A stretch of DNA of 64,000 nt from an uncultured Rhizobium sp. (GTDB lineage: Bacteria; Bacteroidota; Bacteroidia; NS11-12g; UBA955), in NCBI GenBank assembly GCA_964527775.1, contig CAZGQS010000002.1, positions 105,701-169,700 of the forward strand. The letters are read 5' to 3'. Positions 7,023 to 50,221 of this stretch are shown piece by piece (the first letter of the stretch is position 1; every line of letters begins with the position of its first letter). The notes beneath the pieces are model-generated. The model searched no databases. It worked only from the letters and a program-made list of their open reading frames with translations, and had not been told where the DNA came from. The position numbers and the translations under genes are program-made.

Positions 7023-7703
7023 ATGATTCTCGTGATTGAGTCCTCGGCTGATTACCCATCGGTTTGTTTAACGGACGAACAAGGTAATTTGTTGTGGAGC
7101 GAAACGGTTTTTGTGAAGCAATCGCATTCTGAGCAACTCCCATTGTTGGTGGAGAAAGCGTTTTTAAAGTTGAGGGGTGAGGGTGGAGAGTTGAGAGCGG
7201 TGGCGGTGAATGAAGGTCCGGGCAGTTATACGGGTTTGAGGATAGGGGTGAGTTTGGCAAAAGGAATTTGCTATTCCATGGGATGTAAACTATTGTCAAT
7301 TAATGGATTGGTTGCAATGTCGGAGTGGGCCATTGATCAAAGATATTTAGGTGAGGGTTCAGTTTGCGCCATGCTTGATGCACGTAGAGATGAGGTTTAT
7401 ATTGCCATTTTAGATTATCAAGGGGAGGTTATAAAAGAGGTTGAGGCTTTGGTTTTAACCGAAGGATGTTTAGATGGACTGATAGATTTAAATGCTACAG
7501 TGTTCATTGGAAATAGCGGAGAAAAGGCACAAAGATTATTGTCTGCACCTGAAGCGAAAATCATTGATGGACCCGAAGCTCATATGTTTGCAAAGAAAGC
7601 TGCCCAGAAATTTAGGAATGGTGAATTTGAAGATGTTGCTTATTTCGAACCCCATTATTTAAAGGAATTTATTGCAGGGATATCTCAAAAATTTTCGGTT
7701 TGA
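7023..7703 (+). CDS. tsaB: tRNA t6A37 threonylcarbamoyl transfer protein TsaB
   Basis: MILVIESSADYPSVCL...NEGPGSYTGLRIGVSLAKG is the TsaB/YeaZ signature. Confidence 0.88.
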   Translation: MILVIESSADYPSVCLTDEQGNLLWSETVFVKQSHSEQLPLLVEKAFLKLRGEGGELRAVAVNEGPGSYTGLRIGVSLAKGICYSMGCKLLSINGLVAMSEWAIDQRYLGEGSVCAMLDARRDEVYIAILDYQGEVIKEVEALVLTEGCLDGLIDLNATVFIGNSGEKAQRLLSAPEAKIIDGPEAHMFAKKAAQKFRNGEFEDVAYFEPHYLKEFIAGISQKFSV

Positions 7704-8314: not shown

Positions 8315-10050
8315 AGTTCGGCAATACTGCCATGCGCAGGGAAATGATCTTGTATACCTAGATGGTGAAATCTAGGATTCAATGGGTTAGACGGATTGTT
8401 GTCCCATTTTTCCCATAAATATTTAAAATATTGACCAAATCCTCCAATGATGCTACCGTCTTCAATAGTTATGCAATGTTGGTAGTTCTTTTTTTGAATA
8501 AAAGGAACCTCTGTAGCGTGTTTCACCGCTGGAAAGTGAATGAGATCTACATGGTTGAACAATTCAGGTTTTTTCTCTAGAGCGGTTATAGCCAATTGTG
8601 TGGCAATACCCGTGGTACTAATTAAAATCTTTGGATTGCTTGATTGGTGGATGATTTTTGGCTCAGTTGGGTTGGCAAGAAGTTTATTTTGAGCTTGAAT
8701 TGGTGTTTCACCTCTAGGGTATCTAATGAAAACAGGATGGTTTTGTTCAAGAGCCCAATGCATCATGTTTCTAAGTTCTGATGATTGATAGGGTGCGAGT
8801 ATAGTTATATTGGGCAGAGGCAGAAGAAAAGATAAATCAAAACTTCCGTGGTGTGTTGGGCCATCCTCGCCAACGAGTCCTGCACGGTCAATGCAAAAAA
8901 CCACGGGCAGGTTTTGTAGTACCACATCGTGGATGATTTGATCATAAGCGCGTTGCAGAAAAGTGCTGTAGATATTGACAACTACTTTTTTGCCTCCTGC
9001 GGCTATTCCCGCGGCAAAAGTGACTGCATGTTGTTCGGAAATCCCCACATCAAAAAATCGATCTGGATATTTTTCCAAAGTTGGCAACATGCCACATGAG
9101 CTAGGCATGGCAGGTGTAACTCCCCGTAACTCTTGATTGCTGTTTGCCAATTCGAGCAGGGTTTCACCAAAAATGTCTTGCCATTTGGCCATTGGTCTTT
9201 GGTCTTTGGTCTTTGGTTCTTGGTCTTTGGGGGATGGGTGATCAACTTTGATGTATTTGGCGGCGCTATGCCAGCGGGTTTGTTCCTTCTCTGCGGGTTC
9301 ATATCCTTTCCCTTTTATAGTTTGAATATGAATTAGATGAGGTTTGTTCTGGGAAATGGCTTCTTTCAATGTTTTCTTAAGGACTCCAATATCATGTCCA
9401 TCAAAAGGTCCATGATAAATAAATCCAAACCATTCAAAAAATTCTCTGATCTGTTTAGGATGTTTATTTTTTTGTAGGTGAACCAAATGTTTATTCAATG
9501 CACCGGTATTGGGATCAATACCCATTTGGTTGTCATTGAGAATTACAACCAAAGGATAATTCAAATCAATCATGTTGTTCATAGCCTCATAGGCCATGCC
9601 ACCGGTGAGAGCTCCATCGCCAATGATGGCGAATACTGGAGGTCTAGTTTGATTGTATTTTAGGGCTTCTGCAAATCCTACAGCAGCAGAAAGCGCGGTA
9701 GATGAATGTCCGGTCCCAAACCAATCAAATGGAGATTCGCTTCTTTTGGGAAAGCCCGAAATGCCGTTTTTATTTCTAATGTTTTTAATTTCATCACCAC
9801 GGCCAGTCAGAACTTTATAGGGATATGATTGGTGCCCAACATCCCAAATTACTGGGGAAAATTCAGGGTCAATTTCTGACAGGAGAGCCACTGTCAATTC
9901 TATGACGCCAAGGTTTGCTGCAAAGTGACCGCCATTTTCAAGAATGGTATTTATGAGGAAATTTCTTAATTCTGCCGCAACCAAAATTAGTTCTCCCACA
10001 GGCATATTGCGCAGTTCTTGATATTGGCTATACTTTGAAGGAAGCGGCAT
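8245..10050 (-). CDS. dxs: 1-deoxy-D-xylulose-5-phosphate synthase
   Basis: GGHFAANLGVIELTVAL, WDVGHQSYPYKVLTGR and IGDGALTGGMAYEAMNN (TPP motif). Full length at 601 aa. The interdomain linker is encoded by heptamer repeats (see the repeat feature). Confidence 0.95.
   Translation of the reverse strand: MPLPSKYSQYQELRNMPVGELILVAAELRNFLINTILENGGHFAANLGVIELTVALLSEIDPEFSPVIWDVGHQSYPYKVLTGRGDEIKNIRNKNGISGFPKRSESPFDWFGTGHSSTALSAAVGFAEALKYNQTRPPVFAIIGDGALTGGMAYEAMNNMIDLNYPLVVILNDNQMGIDPNTGALNKHLVHLQKNKHPKQIREFFEWFGFIYHGPFDGHDIGVLKKTLKEAISQNKPHLIHIQTIKGKGYEPAEKEQTRWHSAAKYIKVDHPSPKDQEPKTKDQRPMAKWQDIFGETLLELANSNQELRGVTPAMPSSCGMLPTLEKYPDRFFDVGISEQHAVTFAAGIAAGGKKVVVNIYSTFLQRAYDQIIHDVVLQNLPVVFCIDRAGLVGEDGPTHHGSFDLSFLLPLPNITILAPYQSSELRNMMHWALEQNHPVFIRYPRGETPIQAQNKLLANPTEPKIIHQSSNPKILISTTGIATQLAITALEKKPELFNHVDLIHFPAVKHATEVPFIQKKNYQHCITIEDGSIIGGFGQYFKYLWEKWDNNPSNPLNPRFHHLGIQDHFPAHGSIAELQEDEGFDVDSILTKLNQLLINS
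9192..9230 (-). repeat. GACCAAR heptanucleotide tandem repeat (5.5 units, 39 nt) inside the dxs reading frame
   Basis: Plus strand reads TTGGTCT TTGGTCT TTGGTCT TTGGTTC TTGGTCT TTGG, which is the reverse complement of the GACCAAR units. It is translated within PKDQEPKTKDQRP. The unit family is the same as at 38941-39003. Confidence 0.9.
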
Positions 10051-38803: not shown

Positions 38804-38901
38804 CGGTGATCGGTGATCGGTGATCAGCCGTCAGCCGTCAGCTCTCAGCTTTCGGCTTTCAGCTATCAGCGGACAGCCGTCAGCCATCAGCTTTCAGCAG
38901 C
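38804..38901. repeat. Heptanucleotide tandem array: (CGGTGAT)x3 followed by 11 CAGCYNT-type units
   Basis: 14 consecutive 7-nt units in one phase: CGGTGAT x3, CAGCCGT x2, CAGCTCT, CAGCTTT, CGGCTTT, CAGCTAT, CAGCGGA, CAGCCGT, CAGCCAT, CAGCTTT, CAGCAGC. Confidence 0.95.
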
Positions 38902-38940
38902 GCCGAGGGCGCCAAGCAACAGCGAAGCTGTTCAGCTCCC

Positions 38941-39003
38941 GACCAAGGACCAAAGACCAAGGACCAAGGACCAAGGACCAAAGACCAAAGACCAAAGACC
39001 AAG
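38941..39003. repeat. Heptanucleotide tandem array (GACCAAR)x9
   Basis: Units in order: GACCAAG, GACCAAA, GACCAAG x3, GACCAAA x3, GACCAAG. The array ends 3 nt before the stop codon of the UbiA-family gene. Confidence 0.95.
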
Positions 39004-44221: not shown

Positions 44222-45016
44222 TTAATCTATGTAGTATTCTTCCGATGCAGAAGTTTGCCCCAGTTTTATAGGAATGATGACGCCAATAAAGGCTCCAATG
44301 CCTAGATCAAAGTAGCCTTGGTTTTGAGGACTTCGGGTGGTGAAGTCATATGCACGTTGATGCTTTGTGAAGCCCTGTAGGAATTCAAATCCCGCAGTAA
44401 GCGAAACCAATGAATTGTTCAAATACTGAAATCTGATTTGCTCAAAAATTTGAGTACCAGCCGTGAGCCTGTCGTATCCCCCTAAATATTCCTCTTCCAA
44501 TTGAGGAACCATGTCTAGATCGAAGTTGAATTTGGTGTAATGCCTCGTGTATCCAACGCCTCCGCCCAACTGCAATGACCAACGAGCTTCTTTTGCGGCA
44601 TTGTAATTTAAAGGAATGATTTTTAGTGCGTAGGCTCTTGATGACCAACCTCTCATGTAATATCTGATTACTGCGGGATAGCCGTTATTGTCTCTGAGTG
44701 AGCCGTCGGCATCTGTCATATCAGGAAACATCCCGGCTGAGTTTACTTGCGAACCGAGATAAAAACTAAAATCTGCCCCAAGGGTATACTTGTTTTTGTG
44801 GTAATATTCCAATCTGAGCGGCAAAGCGGTGTAAGCAGGATATCTGTCGGCCCAGTCACCAGTATTCACGCTGTATGTTGCTGCCACATGCATGAGAATC
44901 CAGCTTTTTTCTTCATCCTTCTTACGCGTAGAATCAGCAGTTGAAGTAAAATCCTTTTGGGCCTTCAAATTAATGAAGCTTGACACAATCAGAATAAAAA
45001 GCCACCCATTTTTCAT
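44222..45016 (-). CDS. Hypothetical outer-membrane (beta-barrel-like) protein
   Basis: Signal MKNGWLFILIVSSFINLKAQ and barrel-like composition. Its stop abuts the waaA start with a 0-nt gap. Confidence 0.6.
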   Translation of the reverse strand: MKNGWLFILIVSSFINLKAQKDFTSTADSTRKKDEEKSWILMHVAATYSVNTGDWADRYPAYTALPLRLEYYHKNKYTLGADFSFYLGSQVNSAGMFPDMTDADGSLRDNNGYPAVIRYYMRGWSSRAYALKIIPLNYNAAKEARWSLQLGGGVGYTRHYTKFNFDLDMVPQLEEEYLGGYDRLTAGTQIFEQIRFQYLNNSLVSLTAGFEFLQGFTKHQRAYDFTTRSPQNQGYFDLGIGAFIGVIIPIKLGQTSASEEYYID

Positions 45017-45027
45017 GAAAGGCGAAG

Positions 45028-45792
45028 TTAATCAATAATTTCTTTTACTACCTTCAGAAATTCTTCGGGATTGTCAGCATGCACCCAATGCCCAGCCTTG
45101 CTGATGGTATGGTATGTTGAATGGGGGAAATGCTCTTCTATGAAAGGTTTGTCAGTTTCTTTGAGGTACCCGCTTTTTTCTCCCAAAATGAAATGGGTTT
45201 CTTTGTCGAAAACATTTTGAAAATTCAGTCCGCCAATGATTTCATAATAATGATTTTCAATGGCTTCAATATTGATTTTTAGCTGGTACCCTCCTTCAGG
45301 GTTAGCTTCCAGATTTTTCAATAAAAATTGCCTCACTCCCATAATAGGTGCATACGGTAGGAATGCATCGTCGGCCTCTTTTCGAGATTGGATTTTGCTA
45401 AAGTCGATGCTCTTAAATGCTTGAATGTATTCAAGATGTCCGGCGTGATAGGCTTTGGGAGCAATGTCAACCACCAACAGTTTTTTTACTTTTTGGGGAT
45501 GTTGATCTGCGAAAAGCATGGCAGTTTTTCCACCCATTGAGTGGGCCAATATGTAGGTCTCATCAATGTTGAATTGAATCATCAGCTGGTTCAAATCGTT
45601 GGCCATTGCTTGATAAGAGCAATCAGCATCATGAAATGATTTGCCGTGATTACGGGCATCGTACGTTATAACCTTGTATTTTTCTGACAAGGCTTTAGCG
45701 GTTAAATGCCAATTATCGAGCATGCCAAATACCCCGTGTAAAATGATCACGGTTTCATGATGCTGTTCGCCGTATACTTTTGAGTTAAGCAT
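45028..45792 (-). CDS. Alpha/beta hydrolase
   Basis: ILHGVFG (oxyanion), the nucleophile elbow AHSMGG, and the C-terminal GHWVHADNP (His). Confidence 0.85.
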   Translation of the reverse strand: MLNSKVYGEQHHETVIILHGVFGMLDNWHLTAKALSEKYKVITYDARNHGKSFHDADCSYQAMANDLNQLMIQFNIDETYILAHSMGGKTAMLFADQHPQKVKKLLVVDIAPKAYHAGHLEYIQAFKSIDFSKIQSRKEADDAFLPYAPIMGVRQFLLKNLEANPEGGYQLKINIEAIENHYYEIIGGLNFQNVFDKETHFILGEKSGYLKETDKPFIEEHFPHSTYHTISKAGHWVHADNPEEFLKVVKEIID

Positions 45793-45805
45793 TTGTCTTG
45801 TTTAA

Positions 45806-45924
45806 CGGTGATCGGTGATCGGTGGTCGGTGGTCAGCCGTCGGCTTTAGGGTGCAGGCTGTCAGCTGTATGCTATTCGCTTTGGTCTGATAACCGATAAC
45901 CGATCACCGATCACCGATCACTGA
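45806..45924. repeat. Heptanucleotide composite repeat with inverted arms (17 phase-locked units, long hairpin)
   Basis: Units in order: CGGTGAT x2, CGGTGGT x2, CAGCCGT, CGGCTTT, AGGGTGC, AGGCTGT, CAGCTGT, ATGCTAT, TCGCTTT, GGTCTGA, TAACCGA x2, TCACCGA x2, TCACTGA. The right arm is the reverse complement of the left arm (about 26 of 28 positions pair, counting G.U). Confidence 0.92.
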
Positions 45925-47034
45925 TTACAACACCTCGCTAACAGGCGTGTAAGGAAGGTTGAATGCTTGGCTAACGCCTTCGTATACTACTTTGCCTTCA
46001 ACAACGTTGAGTCCTAGGCGGAGGTCAGCGCTGTCAGCGCAAGCTTGTTTCCATCCTTTGTTTGCCAATTGAATGGCGTAGGGAAGGGTTGCGTTTGTTA
46101 GGGCAAGGGTTGATGTATATGGAACTGCGCCAGGCATGTTTGCTACACAGTAGTGAACTACACCGTCAACCACGTAGGTTGGTTCAGCGTGAGTGGTTGG
46201 TTTTGAGGTTTCAAAGCATCCTCCTTGGTCAATGGCAACGTCAACAATGACAGAGCCAGGGCGCATGGTTGATAGCATGTCTTTGGTGATTAATTTTGGA
46301 GCTTTTGCACCTGGAATCAATACGCCACCAATGACTAGATCTGCGGTTTTTACAGCTTCGCGAATGTTATAATCATTGCTGTATTGTGTTTTTACGTTTG
46401 CAGGCATGATATCGTCAAGTTGACGTAAACGGTTAAGGCTAAGATCCATGATGGTTACATCTGCGCCAAGGCCTGCGGCCATCTTTGCAGCTTGAGTTCC
46501 AACTACCCCACCTCCTAAAACTACCACATTTGCAGGTTTAACACCAGGTACGCCACCCAAAAGGATACCGCGTCCGCCCATAGGTTTTTCAAGGTATTTT
46601 GCGCCTTCTTGGATACTCATACGACCAGCAACTTCACTCATTGGAATCAACAAGGGTAAGGTTCTGTTCACTTCAACGGTTTCATAAGCCAAGCAGATGG
46701 CTCCGCTTTTGATCATTGCGTGGGTCAAAGGCTCGTAAGATGCGAAATGGAAATACGTGAACAATAATTGTCCGGCACGAATCAAAGAATATTCCAATTC
46801 AATGGGTTCTTTAACCTTAACAATCATTTCGGCGATGCCGTACACTTCCTCAATGGTTGGGAGTAGGTTAGCCCCGGCTTTGGTGTATTCCTCGTCAGAG
46901 AAACCACTGCCTAATCCGGCGGTTGATTGAACATAAACTTTGTGTCCATGTTTTACAAATTCACTTACTCCAGCAGGAGTTACTGCAACGCGGTTTTCGT
47001 TGTTCTTGATTTCTTTAGGTACCCCGATTATCAT
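45925..47034 (-). CDS. ald: Alanine dehydrogenase
   Basis: [23 protein letters not shown] and [22 protein letters not shown] (NAD). Full AlaDH-like sequence. ATG 47034 is chosen because ATG 47055 lies inside the -7 box. Confidence 0.93.
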
Positions 47035-47052
47035 GGCTTTGAAAAATTGGGG

Positions 47053-47060
47053 CAAAGATA
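47053..47060 (-). promoter_or_regulatory. -7 box TATCTTTG for ald
   Basis: Minus strand reads TATCTTTG, then 18 nt, then ATG(47034). Confidence 0.5.
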
Positions 47061-47066
47061 CGTGCT

Positions 47067-48065
47067 TTAGGGCATGCTTTGCAACTCTGCAATTATGCGA
47101 TTTGCAATATCTTCGGTCTTGATGAATTTAGGTTTCGTTTTAGCCGTTTCTGACTTTTTGAACCACCGTCTGAAGGTCTTTTCGAAGTGGAGGTTCAGGG
47201 TCTCAACAACTTCAACATCAAACTCTTTAAGAGCTTCAGCGTTGCACCATTGTTCATATTGTTTGGGTATGGGTATTATGAGTAAAGGCTTCCCCAGAAA
47301 TAAAGCCTCGGCAGTGGTTTGAAATCCACCAGCAGTAATCACCCCTTTTGATGTGATTAAATCTTGGTCAAATTTTTCACCATCGATGGGGAACCAATGA
47401 ACGTTAAAATCTTTTTCATATTCTTTTACCTCGGGGTGAAATATGTGAAATTCAACTCCTCTTAGGGCGTAAAAATAACGATTGATTTCGCGCTTTGATA
47501 TGTGCGGTAAATAGACCGTCACGTGCTCATTTTGTGAAGGTGTGGCATCCCAAAAATGCTGCTTGATGGTGGGTGGTAAAATCCATTCTTCATAGCTGTT
47601 GTAGTGATAACCGATATTGAATTTTGATACACAATAATTTTTTAATACCCATTCAGAAGCAGCGTGTCTTTTTGGGGGACGTGGAATCAACTTAGAGGCA
47701 AAAGAGGCTTGATTACCAATGTGCAAAAAGGATTTCCCTCTGAGTTTGCATGCCAATGCACCAATGAATTCATAATCTATAATGACGTGATCATACTCAT
47801 TAACAGGCAGTTTTATAGCGTCGCGAATTAATCTATATGGATTGATTTGCTTGATGATTTTCCACCAATGCAAGTTGCCTTCAGGTTGGTAAAAAAGCGA
47901 CAGTCCATTACTTCTAAATTTGATGGGTAGCTCAGGTTTAAGCGAAGAGTTCGCCCCGCTTAGAAATACGTCTACTTGGGCGTGTTTGGATAAATAAGGT
48001 AGTAATTCTATGGCTCTGGAAATGTGTCCGTTACCCGTGGCTTGGATGCAGTATAAGATTTTCAT
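47067..48065 (-). CDS. Glycosyltransferase (GT-B, MJ1255/GT28-C-terminal-like)
   Basis: [21 protein letters not shown] and [23 protein letters not shown]. Confidence 0.75.
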
Positions 48066-48074
48066 GTAGTGTAA

Positions 48075-48929
48075 TTAGAGGGCGCTTTGTATCCAAAATG
48101 CGACTTGCTCTGTAAGTACATCAGGTACTTTAGATGTGTTGTAAGTTTCTACAGCGTTTGAACTTTTTTGGGTTGCATTGAGCTGATGGTAATAAATTTC
48201 CCATTGTCCTTTCTGGTATTCTAAGGCCGTTAGATTTTCCAACCAATCACCACTATTGAGGTAGGTTGTTGATTTGCCATTTTGTGTGATGATTCTTTTT
48301 TGGGGCTGGTGGATGTGACCACAGATTACATAGTCAAAACCATTTTCAATGGCTAAATCAGCAGCGGTTACTTCAAAGTCGCCAATCCATTTAACGGCTT
48401 GTTTTACACTGTTTTTTATTTTTTTGGAGAAGCTTCGTTTTTCATAGCCGAGTGCAGTCATCAATTTGTTGGTCACATGATTTAACCAGATCAGAAAATC
48501 ATAACCGTGTCCACCGAGTTTTGCAATGATTTTTGCACTGCCGCGTGTGGTGGCATCAAATATGTCGCCATGGAAGATCCACGTTTTTTTTCCGTCAAGT
48601 TCAAGAACTAGTTTATCATCGAGGGTGAGATTACCCAATTTTGTGCCAGAGTATTTGCGGAGGGCTTCGTCGTGGTTTCCGGTAATGTAGTAAACATGGG
48701 TTCCCAATTCCATGAGTTTAAATACTTCTCGAATCACTTGTATATGTGCTGCGGGAAAGTACTTTTTGCGAAATTGCCAAATGTCTATAATGTCACCGTT
48801 GAGAACGAGAATTTTAGGCTGTATTGATTTTAGATAGTCAACAATTTCGAGCGCGTGACACCCGAATGTTCCTAGGTGAAGGTCGCTTAAAACGCAAACT
48901 TCCAAAGTTCTTCTTTGAGGGCTTTGCAT
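48075..48929 (-). CDS. UDP-2,3-diacylglucosamine diphosphatase-like metallophosphoesterase
   Basis: VLSDLHLG, LNGDIID, GNHD and GHIH are calcineurin-like motifs. The LpxH-type length and context (next to a GT, near waaA) fit. Confidence 0.8.
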   Translation of the reverse strand: MQSPQRRTLEVCVLSDLHLGTFGCHALEIVDYLKSIQPKILVLNGDIIDIWQFRKKYFPAAHIQVIREVFKLMELGTHVYYITGNHDEALRKYSGTKLGNLTLDDKLVLELDGKKTWIFHGDIFDATTRGSAKIIAKLGGHGYDFLIWLNHVTNKLMTALGYEKRSFSKKIKNSVKQAVKWIGDFEVTAADLAIENGFDYVICGHIHQPQKRIITQNGKSTTYLNSGDWLENLTALEYQKGQWEIYYHQLNATQKSSNAVETYNTSKVPDVLTEQVAFWIQSAL

Positions 48930-49000
48930 GCTCCTCGAAAAAAGTACTCTACTTAAAATTGGGTATTACTGAAGTTTGAAATGTATGATATTGTGTTGTT

Positions 49001-49033
49001 AATCAATTATTAACAGTTAATGCATAATTGATT
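49001..49033 (-). terminator. AT-rich hairpin downstream of the C1 peptidase gene (possible terminator)
   Basis: AATCAATTAT (49001-49010) pairs with ATAATTGATT (49024-49033) around a 13-nt loop. No clear U-run follows, so confidence is low. Confidence 0.3.
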
Positions 49034-49045
49034 TTATGGTCACAA

Positions 49046-50221
49046 TTATTTTATGCCGTCTTGGTGAATCATCACAGAAATGGTCTTGTAAAGAAAGTAT
49101 GGCTTGCTCACAAAAATGTAACCGTTAAGATTATTAACCGTTCCCCAAGAATTTTTGACCAAGTAGTATTCCACGCCCGTGTTTTTTTCTTTGTAAAGTC
49201 CTACTATATGCATGCCGTGGTCATCGGTGGTTTGTTGAGCGTCAAAAGCCTCTTGTCTAATTTCTTGTGTGATGGATTTTTGCTCACACGGTGTGGTGAA
49301 GGCGTTGCTTTTTCTCTCGGCACCTGCATTGTTGAATTGTTTGTTATCTTGACCTTCTTTTTTGATGAGAGAATCATGGATGGGAACAAGGGCAATGCCG
49401 TCTCTGAAGCTAAATCCTTTTTCGCTAACATCAGCAGCCCACGCCACAGAGATCCCCTTTTTCAAGGCCTTGTCTACCGCTTGAGTCATTTCATTGAGGG
49501 GTAGGTTTTCAGCCATTTGCATGGACCAGTTATCGGGGACTTCAATAGCAAATGGTTGATAGAAAGGGTGATGGGTGAAGCTGGTGTATATTTTGTATTG
49601 ATTTTGAATCAAGTCTAATGATTGAGCGAATGATTGAGCGTTGTAGTTTTTACCGCGATAAGTAAATTCAGATGGGATTCTTCCGAGATAGGCGTCTAAA
49701 ATACCATTGATGGCTCCAATCCATTCAGTGCCTATTTTACCTGATGGTTGTTTGACTACGGTTTCTACTACCGATCTCAAGACTGCTATCAATTCTGAGT
49801 GATCATGACGGGTTTTGCCGTTGATTAATCCTGAATAAACTTCGTCGGGAACAATGCCGTATTTAGAAATGATGTAGTTGATATCATGTGCTTCGCCACC
49901 CTCGTCAAATTGGTGTTTCCCAGCCATTCTAACATAGGTAATGGCCTTTTCAACATAGGCGCAGCGGGCAATATACATTTCGCTGAGGTCGTGATTGCCT
50001 TTGTTTTTGCGAATAAGATCAGATTCAATGAGGGAAAGGGTGGAATAGCTCCAACACGTGGCAGTTTTACATTGATCTTTCACTTTGGTGTTTTCGACGT
50101 GAGAGATTTTTTCAAATAAGTATGCGCTTCCCTCTTTGTTGGTATTGAATTGACCAAAGGCGGGAACGAAAAAACATCCCCCGAAAATCAAAGAAACAGA
50201 GGTAAAATTGAACCACTTCAT
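49046..50221 (-). CDS. C1 family cysteine peptidase (aminopeptidase C / bleomycin hydrolase-like), secreted
   Basis: Signal MKWFNFTSVSLIFGGCFFVPAFGQ. Catalytic Cys context QCKTATCWSYS, distal DHGMHIVG (His) and KNSWG. Confidence 0.8.
   Translation of the reverse strand: MKWFNFTSVSLIFGGCFFVPAFGQFNTNKEGSAYLFEKISHVENTKVKDQCKTATCWSYSTLSLIESDLIRKNKGNHDLSEMYIARCAYVEKAITYVRMAGKHQFDEGGEAHDINYIISKYGIVPDEVYSGLINGKTRHDHSELIAVLRSVVETVVKQPSGKIGTEWIGAINGILDAYLGRIPSEFTYRGKNYNAQSFAQSLDLIQNQYKIYTSFTHHPFYQPFAIEVPDNWSMQMAENLPLNEMTQAVDKALKKGISVAWAADVSEKGFSFRDGIALVPIHDSLIKKEGQDNKQFNNAGAERKSNAFTTPCEQKSITQEIRQEAFDAQQTTDDHGMHIVGLYKEKNTGVEYYLVKNSWGTVNNLNGYIFVSKPYFLYKTISVMIHQDGIK

Follow-up and report, generated by a model that had tools for sequence, protein, structure and literature searches.

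What is the repeat-built, hairpin-forming sequence that separates two co-directional genes in this genome: a structured element dedicated to controlling an operon, or one member of a dispersed and changeable repeat family that happens to fold? The sequence lies at 45806-45924 of a 64,000-nucleotide stretch of an uncultured Bacteroidota genome (assembly GCA_964527775.1, contig CAZGQS010000002.1, positions 105,701 to 169,700; hereafter the window), between ald, which encodes alanine dehydrogenase, and a gene for an alpha/beta-fold hydrolase. An earlier note, made from the letters of the window, had described it as the second copy of a heptamer element, folded into a hairpin that could terminate, attenuate or process a bicistronic transcript. 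Our analysis favors the second answer. With a probability of about 0.65, we read the element as a hypervariable heptanucleotide repeat of the kind known as short tandemly repeated repetitive (STRR) sequences or long simple-sequence repeats (LSSRs), and its hairpin as an incidental structure rather than a selected terminator or riboregulator.

The element measures 119 nt, which is 17 slots of 7 nt in a single register that includes its degenerate center, and it extends between a point 13 nt upstream of the hydrolase ATG and the base adjoining the ald stop codon. On the plus strand, the left arm begins at 45806 with CGGTGAT twice and CGGTGGT twice; the center follows with CAGCCGT, CGGCTTT, AGGGTGC, AGGCTGT, CAGCTGT, ATGCTAT, TCGCTTT and GGTCTGA; and the right arm consists of TAACCGA twice, TCACCGA twice and TCACTGA, after which TTA at 45925-45927 is the ald stop codon read on the minus strand. 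Both arms are made of tandem head-to-tail 7-nt units in at least three copies; they were reported by Tandem Repeats Finder (TRF; 3.7 and 5.4 copies, 93-94% matches) and also by a repeat finder, with their complementarity. The center (45834-45889) stays in the 7-nt register, with a lag-7 match of 0.55 compared with 0.17-0.27 at other lags (0 of 10,000 shuffles; p < 1e-4), and it is partly homologous to the center of the allele of a separate species (L124, listed below). The single phase of 17 units ending at the ald stop, the inverted composition of the arms and the position between two minus-strand genes, as given by the open reading frame (ORF) list, had all been claimed from the letters, and all three stand. 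In the sense of the mRNA, the parts are as follows.

45890 to 45924, minus strand: 5' arm of the hairpin (UCAGUGA, UCGGUGA twice, UCGGUUA twice), GU-rich, directly after the ald stop (sequence, folds, TRF).
45834 to 45889, minus strand: degenerate center of eight CAGCNNN/NNGCTGN slots, forming the loop and weak inner helices (lag-7 match).
45806 to 45833, minus strand: 3' arm of the hairpin (ACCACCG twice, ATCACCG twice), AC-rich, 13 nt before the hydrolase start, with 100% identity in the independent assembly L122 (sequence, folds).
45793 to 45805, minus strand: unique A-rich leader UUAAACAAGACAA before the hydrolase AUG, with neither U-tract nor promoter box (sequence, motif scan).

Two details of the earlier description need adjustment. 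A TTTGGTC unit is indeed present once, at 45879-45885, but it sits 3 nt out of register. The phase is likewise kept from one arm to the other, and is typical in this respect, but the difficulty that this was said to pose for slippage was overstated: no inversion event is needed. Within one register, TCGGTGA is succeeded by TCAGCCG and this in turn by ATCACCG. Between the left and right 'TC' frames of this element there is an offset of 1 nt, which recurs in 10 of 13 comparable loci; the offset is a property of the family and not a peculiarity of the site.

The fold predicted for the transcript is strong. On the minus (mRNA) strand, the region has a minimum free energy (MFE) of -56.7 to -60.9 kcal/mol across folds (z -6.5 to -7.5), with a stem of 18 bp, a 2x2 internal loop and a further 5 bp (arm duplex -43.6 kcal/mol) that begins 4-8 nt after the UAA stop of ald and closes a loop of about 50-60 nt. 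That a long stem-loop is possible in the transcript of this strain, as had been proposed, is borne out by these folds; the accompanying count of 26 paired positions in 28 with G.U pairs allowed is true of the plus strand (fold -74.6 kcal/mol, z -7.5; arm duplex -51.0 kcal/mol), but the minus strand turns the G.U pairs into C.A mismatches. The stem of 18 + 5 bp provides the GC-rich stem-loop directly downstream of a gene by which intrinsic terminators are recognized. Inspection of the sequence found no U-tract 3' of the stem, which is followed by GUUAAACAAG (given also as GUUAAACAAGACAAAUG); a scan for Sigma-70-type promoters and for terminators gave counts at shuffle level and nothing at the element; and Rfam yielded no family match to the element, its single match, at chance level (E = 0.98), lying outside it. 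TAnnTTTG is the -7 promoter box of Bacteroidota, and a motif scan of the minus strand found none between ald and the hydrolase gene. A full terminator is unlikely, because no U-tract follows the stem and no such box lies between the two genes.

Six complete alleles of this junction were obtained from public assemblies (L-numbers denote fetched sequence records, and flank identities are relative to the window); the alleles come from the public records ERZ28594040, GCA_023653095.1, GCA_041171025.1 and SRR28148146.

Window: 17 units, MFE z -7.2, flanks the reference.
L121: 22 units plus 1 nt, MFE z -4.9, flanks 99.7-100% identical.
L235: 21 units plus 1 nt, MFE z -4.9, flanks 97-98% identical.
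L234: 23 units, MFE z -1.6, flanks 96-97% identical.
L232: 22 units, MFE z +0.4, flanks 95-97% identical.
L124: 25 units, MFE z -4.0, flanks 81-87% identical; a separate species.

The expectation that length would vary in steps of 7 between related genomes is borne out by alleles of 17, 22, 23 and 25 units, alongside two of 21 and 22 units that carry one extra base. Within the species itself (L121, L235, L234 and L232, with flanks 95-100% identical to the window), whole arrays have been replaced: L121 has nine CAGCYRT-type units at the position of the window's CGGTGAT, and L232 has eleven ATAACCG/ATCACCG units without a matching left arm. Related alleles keep their outermost units and differ inside the arrays, so growth at the outer edges receives no support, and the gain and loss of whole heptamers between alleles fits slippage or unequal exchange combined with point mutation.

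More distant relatives have other arrangements at the junction. Eight genomes of the genus have TAATG, in which stop and start codons overlap; in five relatives the genes are some 70 nt apart and the gap holds a canonical terminator (GGGGAAAAG...CTTTTCCCC, then a T-run); a repeat-free gap of about 105 nt is seen in two others; and the sister species (ald 97.6% identical at the amino-acid level) has about 380 nt of heptamers made of other units (CGGGTAT/CGGGTAC ... GACCATA/GTACCAG). The proposal of a dedicated structured regulatory element is not supported by this comparison: the hairpin is not conserved at the orthologous junction (L232, L234), an outcome that the earlier note had itself named as refuting such a role, the sister species has quite different units and the genus relatives have TAATG or a terminator, to which are added the lack of a U-tract or promoter box and the genome-wide arm statistics given below. 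In the sister species the hydrolase start lies within a heptamer, GACCATG (L082, contig C14; also L125), which adds three array-derived residues (MSQR...), and the last ald codon of relatives (N or A) is missing both there and in the genome of the window. Judging from these sequences, the arrays intrude into the ends of both genes and can provide stop as well as start codons.

The decisive test concerned arm complementarity and was made over 80 long loci by exchanging arms between them. The outer 42-nt arm duplexes have a native mean of -24.5 kcal/mol, compared with -30.1 kcal/mol for chimeras between loci (permutation p = 1.0), and selection for arm complementarity is rejected by this test; there is no genome-wide excess of within-locus arm pairing, and most loci have non-complementary ends. 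The ald/hydrolase locus has the strongest outer-arm duplex of the 80 (-53.2 kcal/mol), about 11 of the 80 being comparable. Since the arms are drawn from a GT-rich repertoire and its complements, matching arms are no commoner than chance pairing would make them. The idea that hairpins are commoner in tandem than in convergent gaps was also rejected (6/29 vs 4/25, p = 0.74).

The element is, moreover, far from alone. A census of period-7 repeats over the whole assembly (2.46 Mb in 65 contigs, 39.8% G+C; G000 hereafter) found 372 arrays covering 16.6 kb, compared with 32, 11, 29, 15, 3, 0 and 6 arrays at periods of 5, 6, 8, 9, 10, 11 and 12. These 372 arrays merge into about 160 composite loci that share a small repertoire of units, headed by CGGTGAT, GACCAAA and CAGCCGT with their variants, and several unrelated unit families coexist in the one genome. 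The element at the ald/hydrolase junction is one ordinary copy of this dispersed heptamer family, and the earlier assignment of the element and of the locus at 38804-39003 of the window to one family is supported.

The distribution of the family among related genomes indicates how it has changed. With one mismatch permitted, three tandem copies of CGGTGAT are found 135 times in G000 and in none of 30 relatives; TTTGGTC in three copies occurs 86 times in G000, 12 times in the sister species (G005) and nowhere else. In a 387-kb sample of G005 there are 44 period-7 arrays built from units of its own (CGGG-type, compared with CGGT-type in G000), and of the 14 heptamer sites in it that could be mapped, 13 hold heptamers in G000 as well, while no heptamer arrays were found in the 400 kb sampled from four other members of the genus. 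Sites that are old and stable within the sub-clade (G000, G005 and the species of L124), with units homogenized per genome, point to concerted evolution, a pattern that slippage acting separately at every site could not generate. Two contigs of G005, C17 and C25 (L105-L107), are 89-97% identical to G000 and carry G000-type units, and the remaining G005 sample is about 71-88% identical and has its own units; C17 and C25 may be mis-binned contigs of a strain close to G000 or recently exchanged DNA.

We propose slipped-strand mispairing or unequal exchange inside the arrays, together with point mutation, as the source of their changes, and the arrays may be homogenized between loci by ectopic recombination, that is, by concerted evolution. 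If the left arrays are taken from a limited GT-rich set of units and the right arrays from the AC-rich complements of that set, matching arms would arise at some loci, the present locus of this strain among them, with a long hairpin as the by-product. Inside an apparent ald-hydrolase transcription unit, the element would have to be read through, and its hairpin (about -57 kcal/mol) would probably have secondary effects only, such as some pausing or attenuation of the downstream genes. It may also act as a 3'-exonuclease barrier that stabilizes the ald segment of the mRNA, like repetitive extragenic palindromic (REP) elements, the stems of which are known as barriers to 3' exonucleases and for effects near stop codons. 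On the predicted folds, the stem is likely at most to attenuate or to stabilize the operon transcript.

The placement of the loci, assessed against our own simple gene calls (1973 genes, 90.7% coding), is strongly biased. By location, 108 loci are intergenic, 17 genic and 35 at contig ends, and they occupy 53 of 305 convergent, 44 of 1304 tandem and 11 of 299 divergent gaps (convergent vs divergent, p = 2e-8). For half of the array ends, a stop codon is no more than about 10 nt away, and many stops are part of the first unit. At stop codons (98 arrays) the sense strand is GT-rich in 72 cases and AC-rich in 12 (p = 1e-11), and at start codons (27 arrays) it is AC-rich in 24 and GT-rich in none. 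One geometric rule describes both: irrespective of gene orientation, it is the strand entering the element 5' to 3' from its flank that is GT-rich. Long loci follow the order of GT-rich, then neutral CAGC-type, then AC-rich units, and where CGGTNNT arrays occur with their reverse complement (12 loci), the G-rich arm comes first in 12/12, with the same phase offset in 7.

Two candidate causes of this polarity were tried and rejected. Stop-codon content as the sole cause fits CGGTGAT, which places TGA in all three frames, but not TTTGGTC, which has no stop in either orientation and yet is polar (sense vs reverse complement, 15:0; CCTTGGT, 4:0), and telomerase-like addition templated by a reverse transcriptase is rejected because no reverse transcriptase (RVT_1) was found in G000 or G005. 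At the start side of genes, several AC-rich arrays end at a TAtcTTTG box 4-6 nt before the ATG (for example at G000 C29:19272, C36:10766 and C10:68271); arrays adjoining such a box can thus lie in the upstream promoter regions of genes that are probably leaderless or have short leaders.

Some loci are more than heptamers. About 20 of them share a conserved non-repetitive core of about 37 nt, CAGCTTCGCTGAGACTTTGAGACTCACGCTTCGCTAG (for example at G000 C40:3300-3336, C11:39743-39779, C31:14444-14480 and C4:148675-148710), which is not present at the ald/hydrolase locus. The density of the motif GCGAAGC/GCTTCGC is 13-fold higher in heptamer loci than outside them (41 matches in 26.7 kb vs 291 elsewhere), and d(GCGAAGC) is a very stable mini-hairpin with a GNA triloop. 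Tandem arrays of 17-nt units (GCTTCGCTAGGACTCAC or GCTGCGCTAGGACTCAC), whose sequence is the core of heptamer loci, stand alone in some places and adjoin heptamers in others (G000 C29:22781-22950, C3:5826-6201, C1:47909-47990, C11:21358-21460 and C14:65-166). The shared core hints at dispersal of composite elements, since in-situ slippage cannot explain such a core.

Any role of the hairpin also depends on how the flanking genes are transcribed.

45925 to 47055, minus strand: ald (alanine dehydrogenase), stop TAA at 45925-45927, ORF start TTG 47055 (ORF list).
47053 to 47060, minus strand: promoter box TATCTTTG, the sole TAnnTTTG match on the minus strand within 45000-49200 (motif scan).
45028 to 45792, minus strand: alpha/beta-fold hydrolase, 254 aa, start codon seen as CAT at 45790-45792 of the plus strand (ORF list; Pfam Abhydrolase_1/6).

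The probable ald start is ATG 47034, which gives a product of 369 aa; this is the form called in public records, and Pfam finds AlaDh_PNT_N/C on the identical 369-aa product. The ORF from TTG 47055 probably over-extends the gene, because the TATCTTTG box sits 18 nt upstream of ATG 47034. From its sequence and position, this box is the probable promoter of the ald-hydrolase transcription unit; gaps downstream of the element are at most 11 nt, and the hydrolase and following genes are probably transcribed from the ald promoter through the element. Read-through seems required, because neither a U-tract nor a promoter box lies between ald and the hydrolase gene. The ald orthologue adjoins the hydrolase throughout the genus and order, all ald relatives found are from Bacteroidota, and one source names the hydrolase relatives as pimeloyl-ACP methyl ester carboxylesterase.

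Several observations weigh against an incidental hairpin shaped by slippage and exchange, and rival explanations draw on them. The z score is -4 or lower in four of the six alleles (three of the five allele types), and canonical terminators are depleted in heptamer-bearing convergent gaps (7/40 vs 35/65), which would fit a terminator-substitute role; plain slippage explains neither the polarity rule nor the genome-specific units at conserved sites and the non-repetitive core in some loci; and all the sequences are from metagenome assemblies, in which such repeats are frequent break points (35 of 160 loci are at contig ends), so that some allele structures may be mis-threaded. The first two points favor a functional intercistronic RNA hairpin, resembling REP elements and bacterial interspersed mosaic elements (BIMEs) or acting as a partial terminator, that would set the ald:hydrolase expression ratio by pausing of RNA polymerase, a block to 3' exonucleases or stalling of terminating ribosomes at a stem 4-8 nt after the stop. 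The strength of the predicted mRNA-strand stem and its rank among the 80 long loci argue in the same direction, as does the canonical terminator at exactly this junction in five relatives, which indicates that a hairpin is tolerated there and possibly useful. We nevertheless consider such a function unlikely, since alleles from within the species lack the structure or form it weakly, the two genes overlap in eight relatives and leave no spacer, the stem has no U-tract, arm complementarity shows no excess within loci genome-wide, and strong termination would be harmful to downstream genes without a promoter box of their own. The wider proposal that heptamers replace terminators is given little weight: the depletion is real but confounded by gap length, these gaps being long solely through their arrays. 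The polarity rule, the stable sites with replaced units, and the conserved mini-hairpin core and 17-nt repeats found centrally in many loci would instead be explained if a directional, lineage-specific process, which one sub-clade had acquired, wrote the arrays and maintained their uniformity; a repeat-specific binding, recombination or polymerase factor would be a candidate. We regard this as distinctly unlikely; if true, the arrays would be modular insulators at gene ends, GU-rich after stops and serving as AC-rich leaders free of start codons before starts, and the ald/hydrolase hairpin would be one working configuration.

Mobility, a DNA-level role and misassembly each account for part of the same evidence. 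A mobile element resembling miniature inverted-repeat transposable elements (MITEs) or BIMEs, with heptamer arrays as terminal inverted repeats and inserted at a TAA/TTAA target, is suggested by the inverted ends TCAGTGATCGG ... CCGATCACCGT, with TAA on the left and TTAA on the right, by the empty TAATG sites of relatives, by some 160 dispersed copies restricted to one sub-lineage and by the core of about 37 nt in some 20 loci, which goes beyond independent in-situ slippage. We find this reading improbable, however, because no Y1 transposase (PF01797; RAYT/IS200) matched in G000 or G005, although the same search found it in 8 of 31 relatives and in controls, and neither genome has a detectable reverse transcriptase; because 13 of 14 sites are shared with the sister species, which implies little recent movement; because alleles differ by unit gain and loss inside arrays, with the outermost units kept; and because most loci have non-complementary ends and the ald/hydrolase locus lacks the core. 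A 3-nt target duplication coincides with the stop codon and is not demonstrable, and no clean pair of empty and filled sites within one species was found. The arrays might alternatively serve as DNA, CGGTGAT having GATC every 7 bp, as binding or methylation sites for a lineage-specific protein whose specificity would set the unit repertoire and polarity of the genome. Such a role would suit the genome-specific units at conserved sites (CGGT-type in G000, CGGG-type in G005), the strict polarity rule and the confinement of the family to one clade of the genus, but the analysis identified no candidate factor, several unit families without relation to one another occur side by side in the genome and strains differ freely in their arrays, all of which leaves it very improbable. 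As for an artefact of short-read mis-threading through repeats common to many loci, the loci at contig ends and the several public contigs that break in this element (L122, L233 and L236-L238) make the question a proper one, but we give the idea hardly any credence: L122, an independent Logan assembly, matches the window at 100% identity along 2308 nt that take in the entire right arm; the 119-nt element is shorter than typical paired-read inserts; and six assemblies that cross the junction have heptamer arrays there in one and the same register.

An incidental hairpin within a hypervariable repeat thus remains the reading that we prefer, and it agrees with what has been reported for heptanucleotide repeats in other bacteria. 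Among the long simple-sequence repeats of many bacteria, those with heptanucleotide units form the most abundant class (Mrazek 2007, as summarized in PMC4679880); Mrazek et al. 2007 on LSSRs is also summarized in PMC4692102. Examples are the G-rich GGGAATC of Xanthomonas and GGGGA(C/T)T of Nostoc PCC 7120 (Rehm et al. 2015, PMC4692102), for which the G-rich strand is coding downstream of an ORF and non-coding upstream, and paired inverted arrays with stem-loop potential have been noted in Xanthomonas (PMC4692102). The repeats described here share with LSSRs the over-representation of 7-nt units relative to other periods, a mostly intergenic location, arrays 0-50 bp from ORFs that overlap stop codons, the same orientation rule, and sites conserved between related species with variable length and sequence; period-7 over-representation, intergenic placement near ORF ends and whole-unit copy-number polymorphism, which define the LSSR/STRR type, are thus all found. 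They differ in that the units are not G-tract (quadruplex) units, within each locus several unit families are combined in one register, a conserved core made of GC-rich mini-hairpins and 17-nt repeats is present in some loci, and the host is a small-genome, uncultured lineage of Bacteroidia in which one sub-clade of the genus alone has the repeats.

The comparison extends to cyanobacteria and to other Bacteroidetes. STRR sequences are the short tandemly repeated repetitive heptamers that Mazel et al. reportedly described from heterocystous cyanobacteria in 1990, with units such as CCCCAGT, TTGGTCA (STRR2) and CAACAGT. Like them, the present heptamers occur in tandem, are dispersed over intergenic sites and comprise several unit families in a genome, and TTTGGTC is one base from the STRR2 unit read cyclically; they belong to another phylum, and identity with the named STRR units was not found. 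To our knowledge, polarity, an allele series and arm statistics have not been described for STRR. On sequence grounds, the element is the same kind of repeat as STRR and not the same sequence family. STRR sequences are cited for Calothrix in PMC4692102. TAACTGA and its accompanying heptamers occur in Beggiatoaceae, cyanobacteria and five Bacteroidetes (MacGregor 2015, PMC4679880); for Gramella and Aequorivita, close relatives have shorter, repeat-free gaps in the same gene neighborhood, and the Beggiatoaceae repeats lie mostly upstream of starts, for which translational regulation was proposed (PMC4679880). The likeness to our arrays lies in their intergenic position directly at start and stop codons, in assemblies that break within the repeats, and in a forward orientation that places stops in all three frames, as CGGTGAT does here, although TAACTGA is not a unit in this genome.

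Resemblance to two classes of hairpin is less far-reaching. REP and BIME sequences are, like the present family, extragenic, high-copy and hairpin-forming, at gene 3' ends and between operon genes. REPs are fixed imperfect palindromes of about 35 nt mobilized by RAYT transposases, whereas the present genome has no RAYT, its arms consist of tandem heptamers that vary in length, and palindromic members are in the minority; membership is rejected, as there is neither a Y1 transposase nor a conserved palindrome shared by the copies. With intrinsic terminators the element shares a stable stem-loop downstream of a stop codon, and five genus relatives have a true terminator at this junction, but it differs in the absence of a U-tract, a loop of about 50-60 nt, downstream genes without their own promoter, and a structure not conserved among alleles.

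We know of no accepted mechanism or function for heptanucleotide repeats, abundant in scattered bacterial lineages, after 35 years. The present lineage offers a natural experiment, in which one sub-clade has some 160 loci and the rest of the genus none, with conserved sites and rewritten units, and its strict polarity matches the reports from Xanthomonas and Nostoc. The allele series, with and without the hairpin at one operon junction, makes the effect of the structure directly testable. For annotation, the hairpin is best treated as a single passing state of a hypervariable repeat, to be recorded neither as a terminator nor as a riboregulator. Because the repeats break short-read assemblies, they bias the contiguity of metagenome-assembled genomes (MAGs) and the annotation of gene ends.

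Two further members of the family lie in the window.

38804 to 39003, no strand assigned: sister heptamer locus in a convergent gap, with CGGTGAT and CAGCNNN arrays, a center with small GC-rich hairpins and then a GACCAAR array (sequence, TRF).
9184 to 9230, no strand assigned: TTTGGTC array of 6.7 copies, census locus C2:114882-114930 (TRF).

The search for orthologous gaps in heptamer-free relatives covered two loci of the window, on fetched contigs syntenic to it, and the gap orthologous to 38804-39003 is just 18-24 nt, without a terminator, in four genus relatives. The array at 9184-9230 was placed inside a putative ORF by the simple gene caller, and a further period-7 array, AGTTGAG in 4.3 copies, is found at 7168-7197. 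Heptamer arrays also occur in other Bacteroidota records (L009, L061, L062, L066 and L070). One of these, L061 (Chitinophagales MAG JBBSDH010000111.1), has two inverted array pairs, at 233-275/806-852 (AATGCGG vs CCGCATT) and 1549-1584/1629-1673 (GCAGGCA-type vs its complement), and in both the G-rich array comes first, with the polarity seen in G000.

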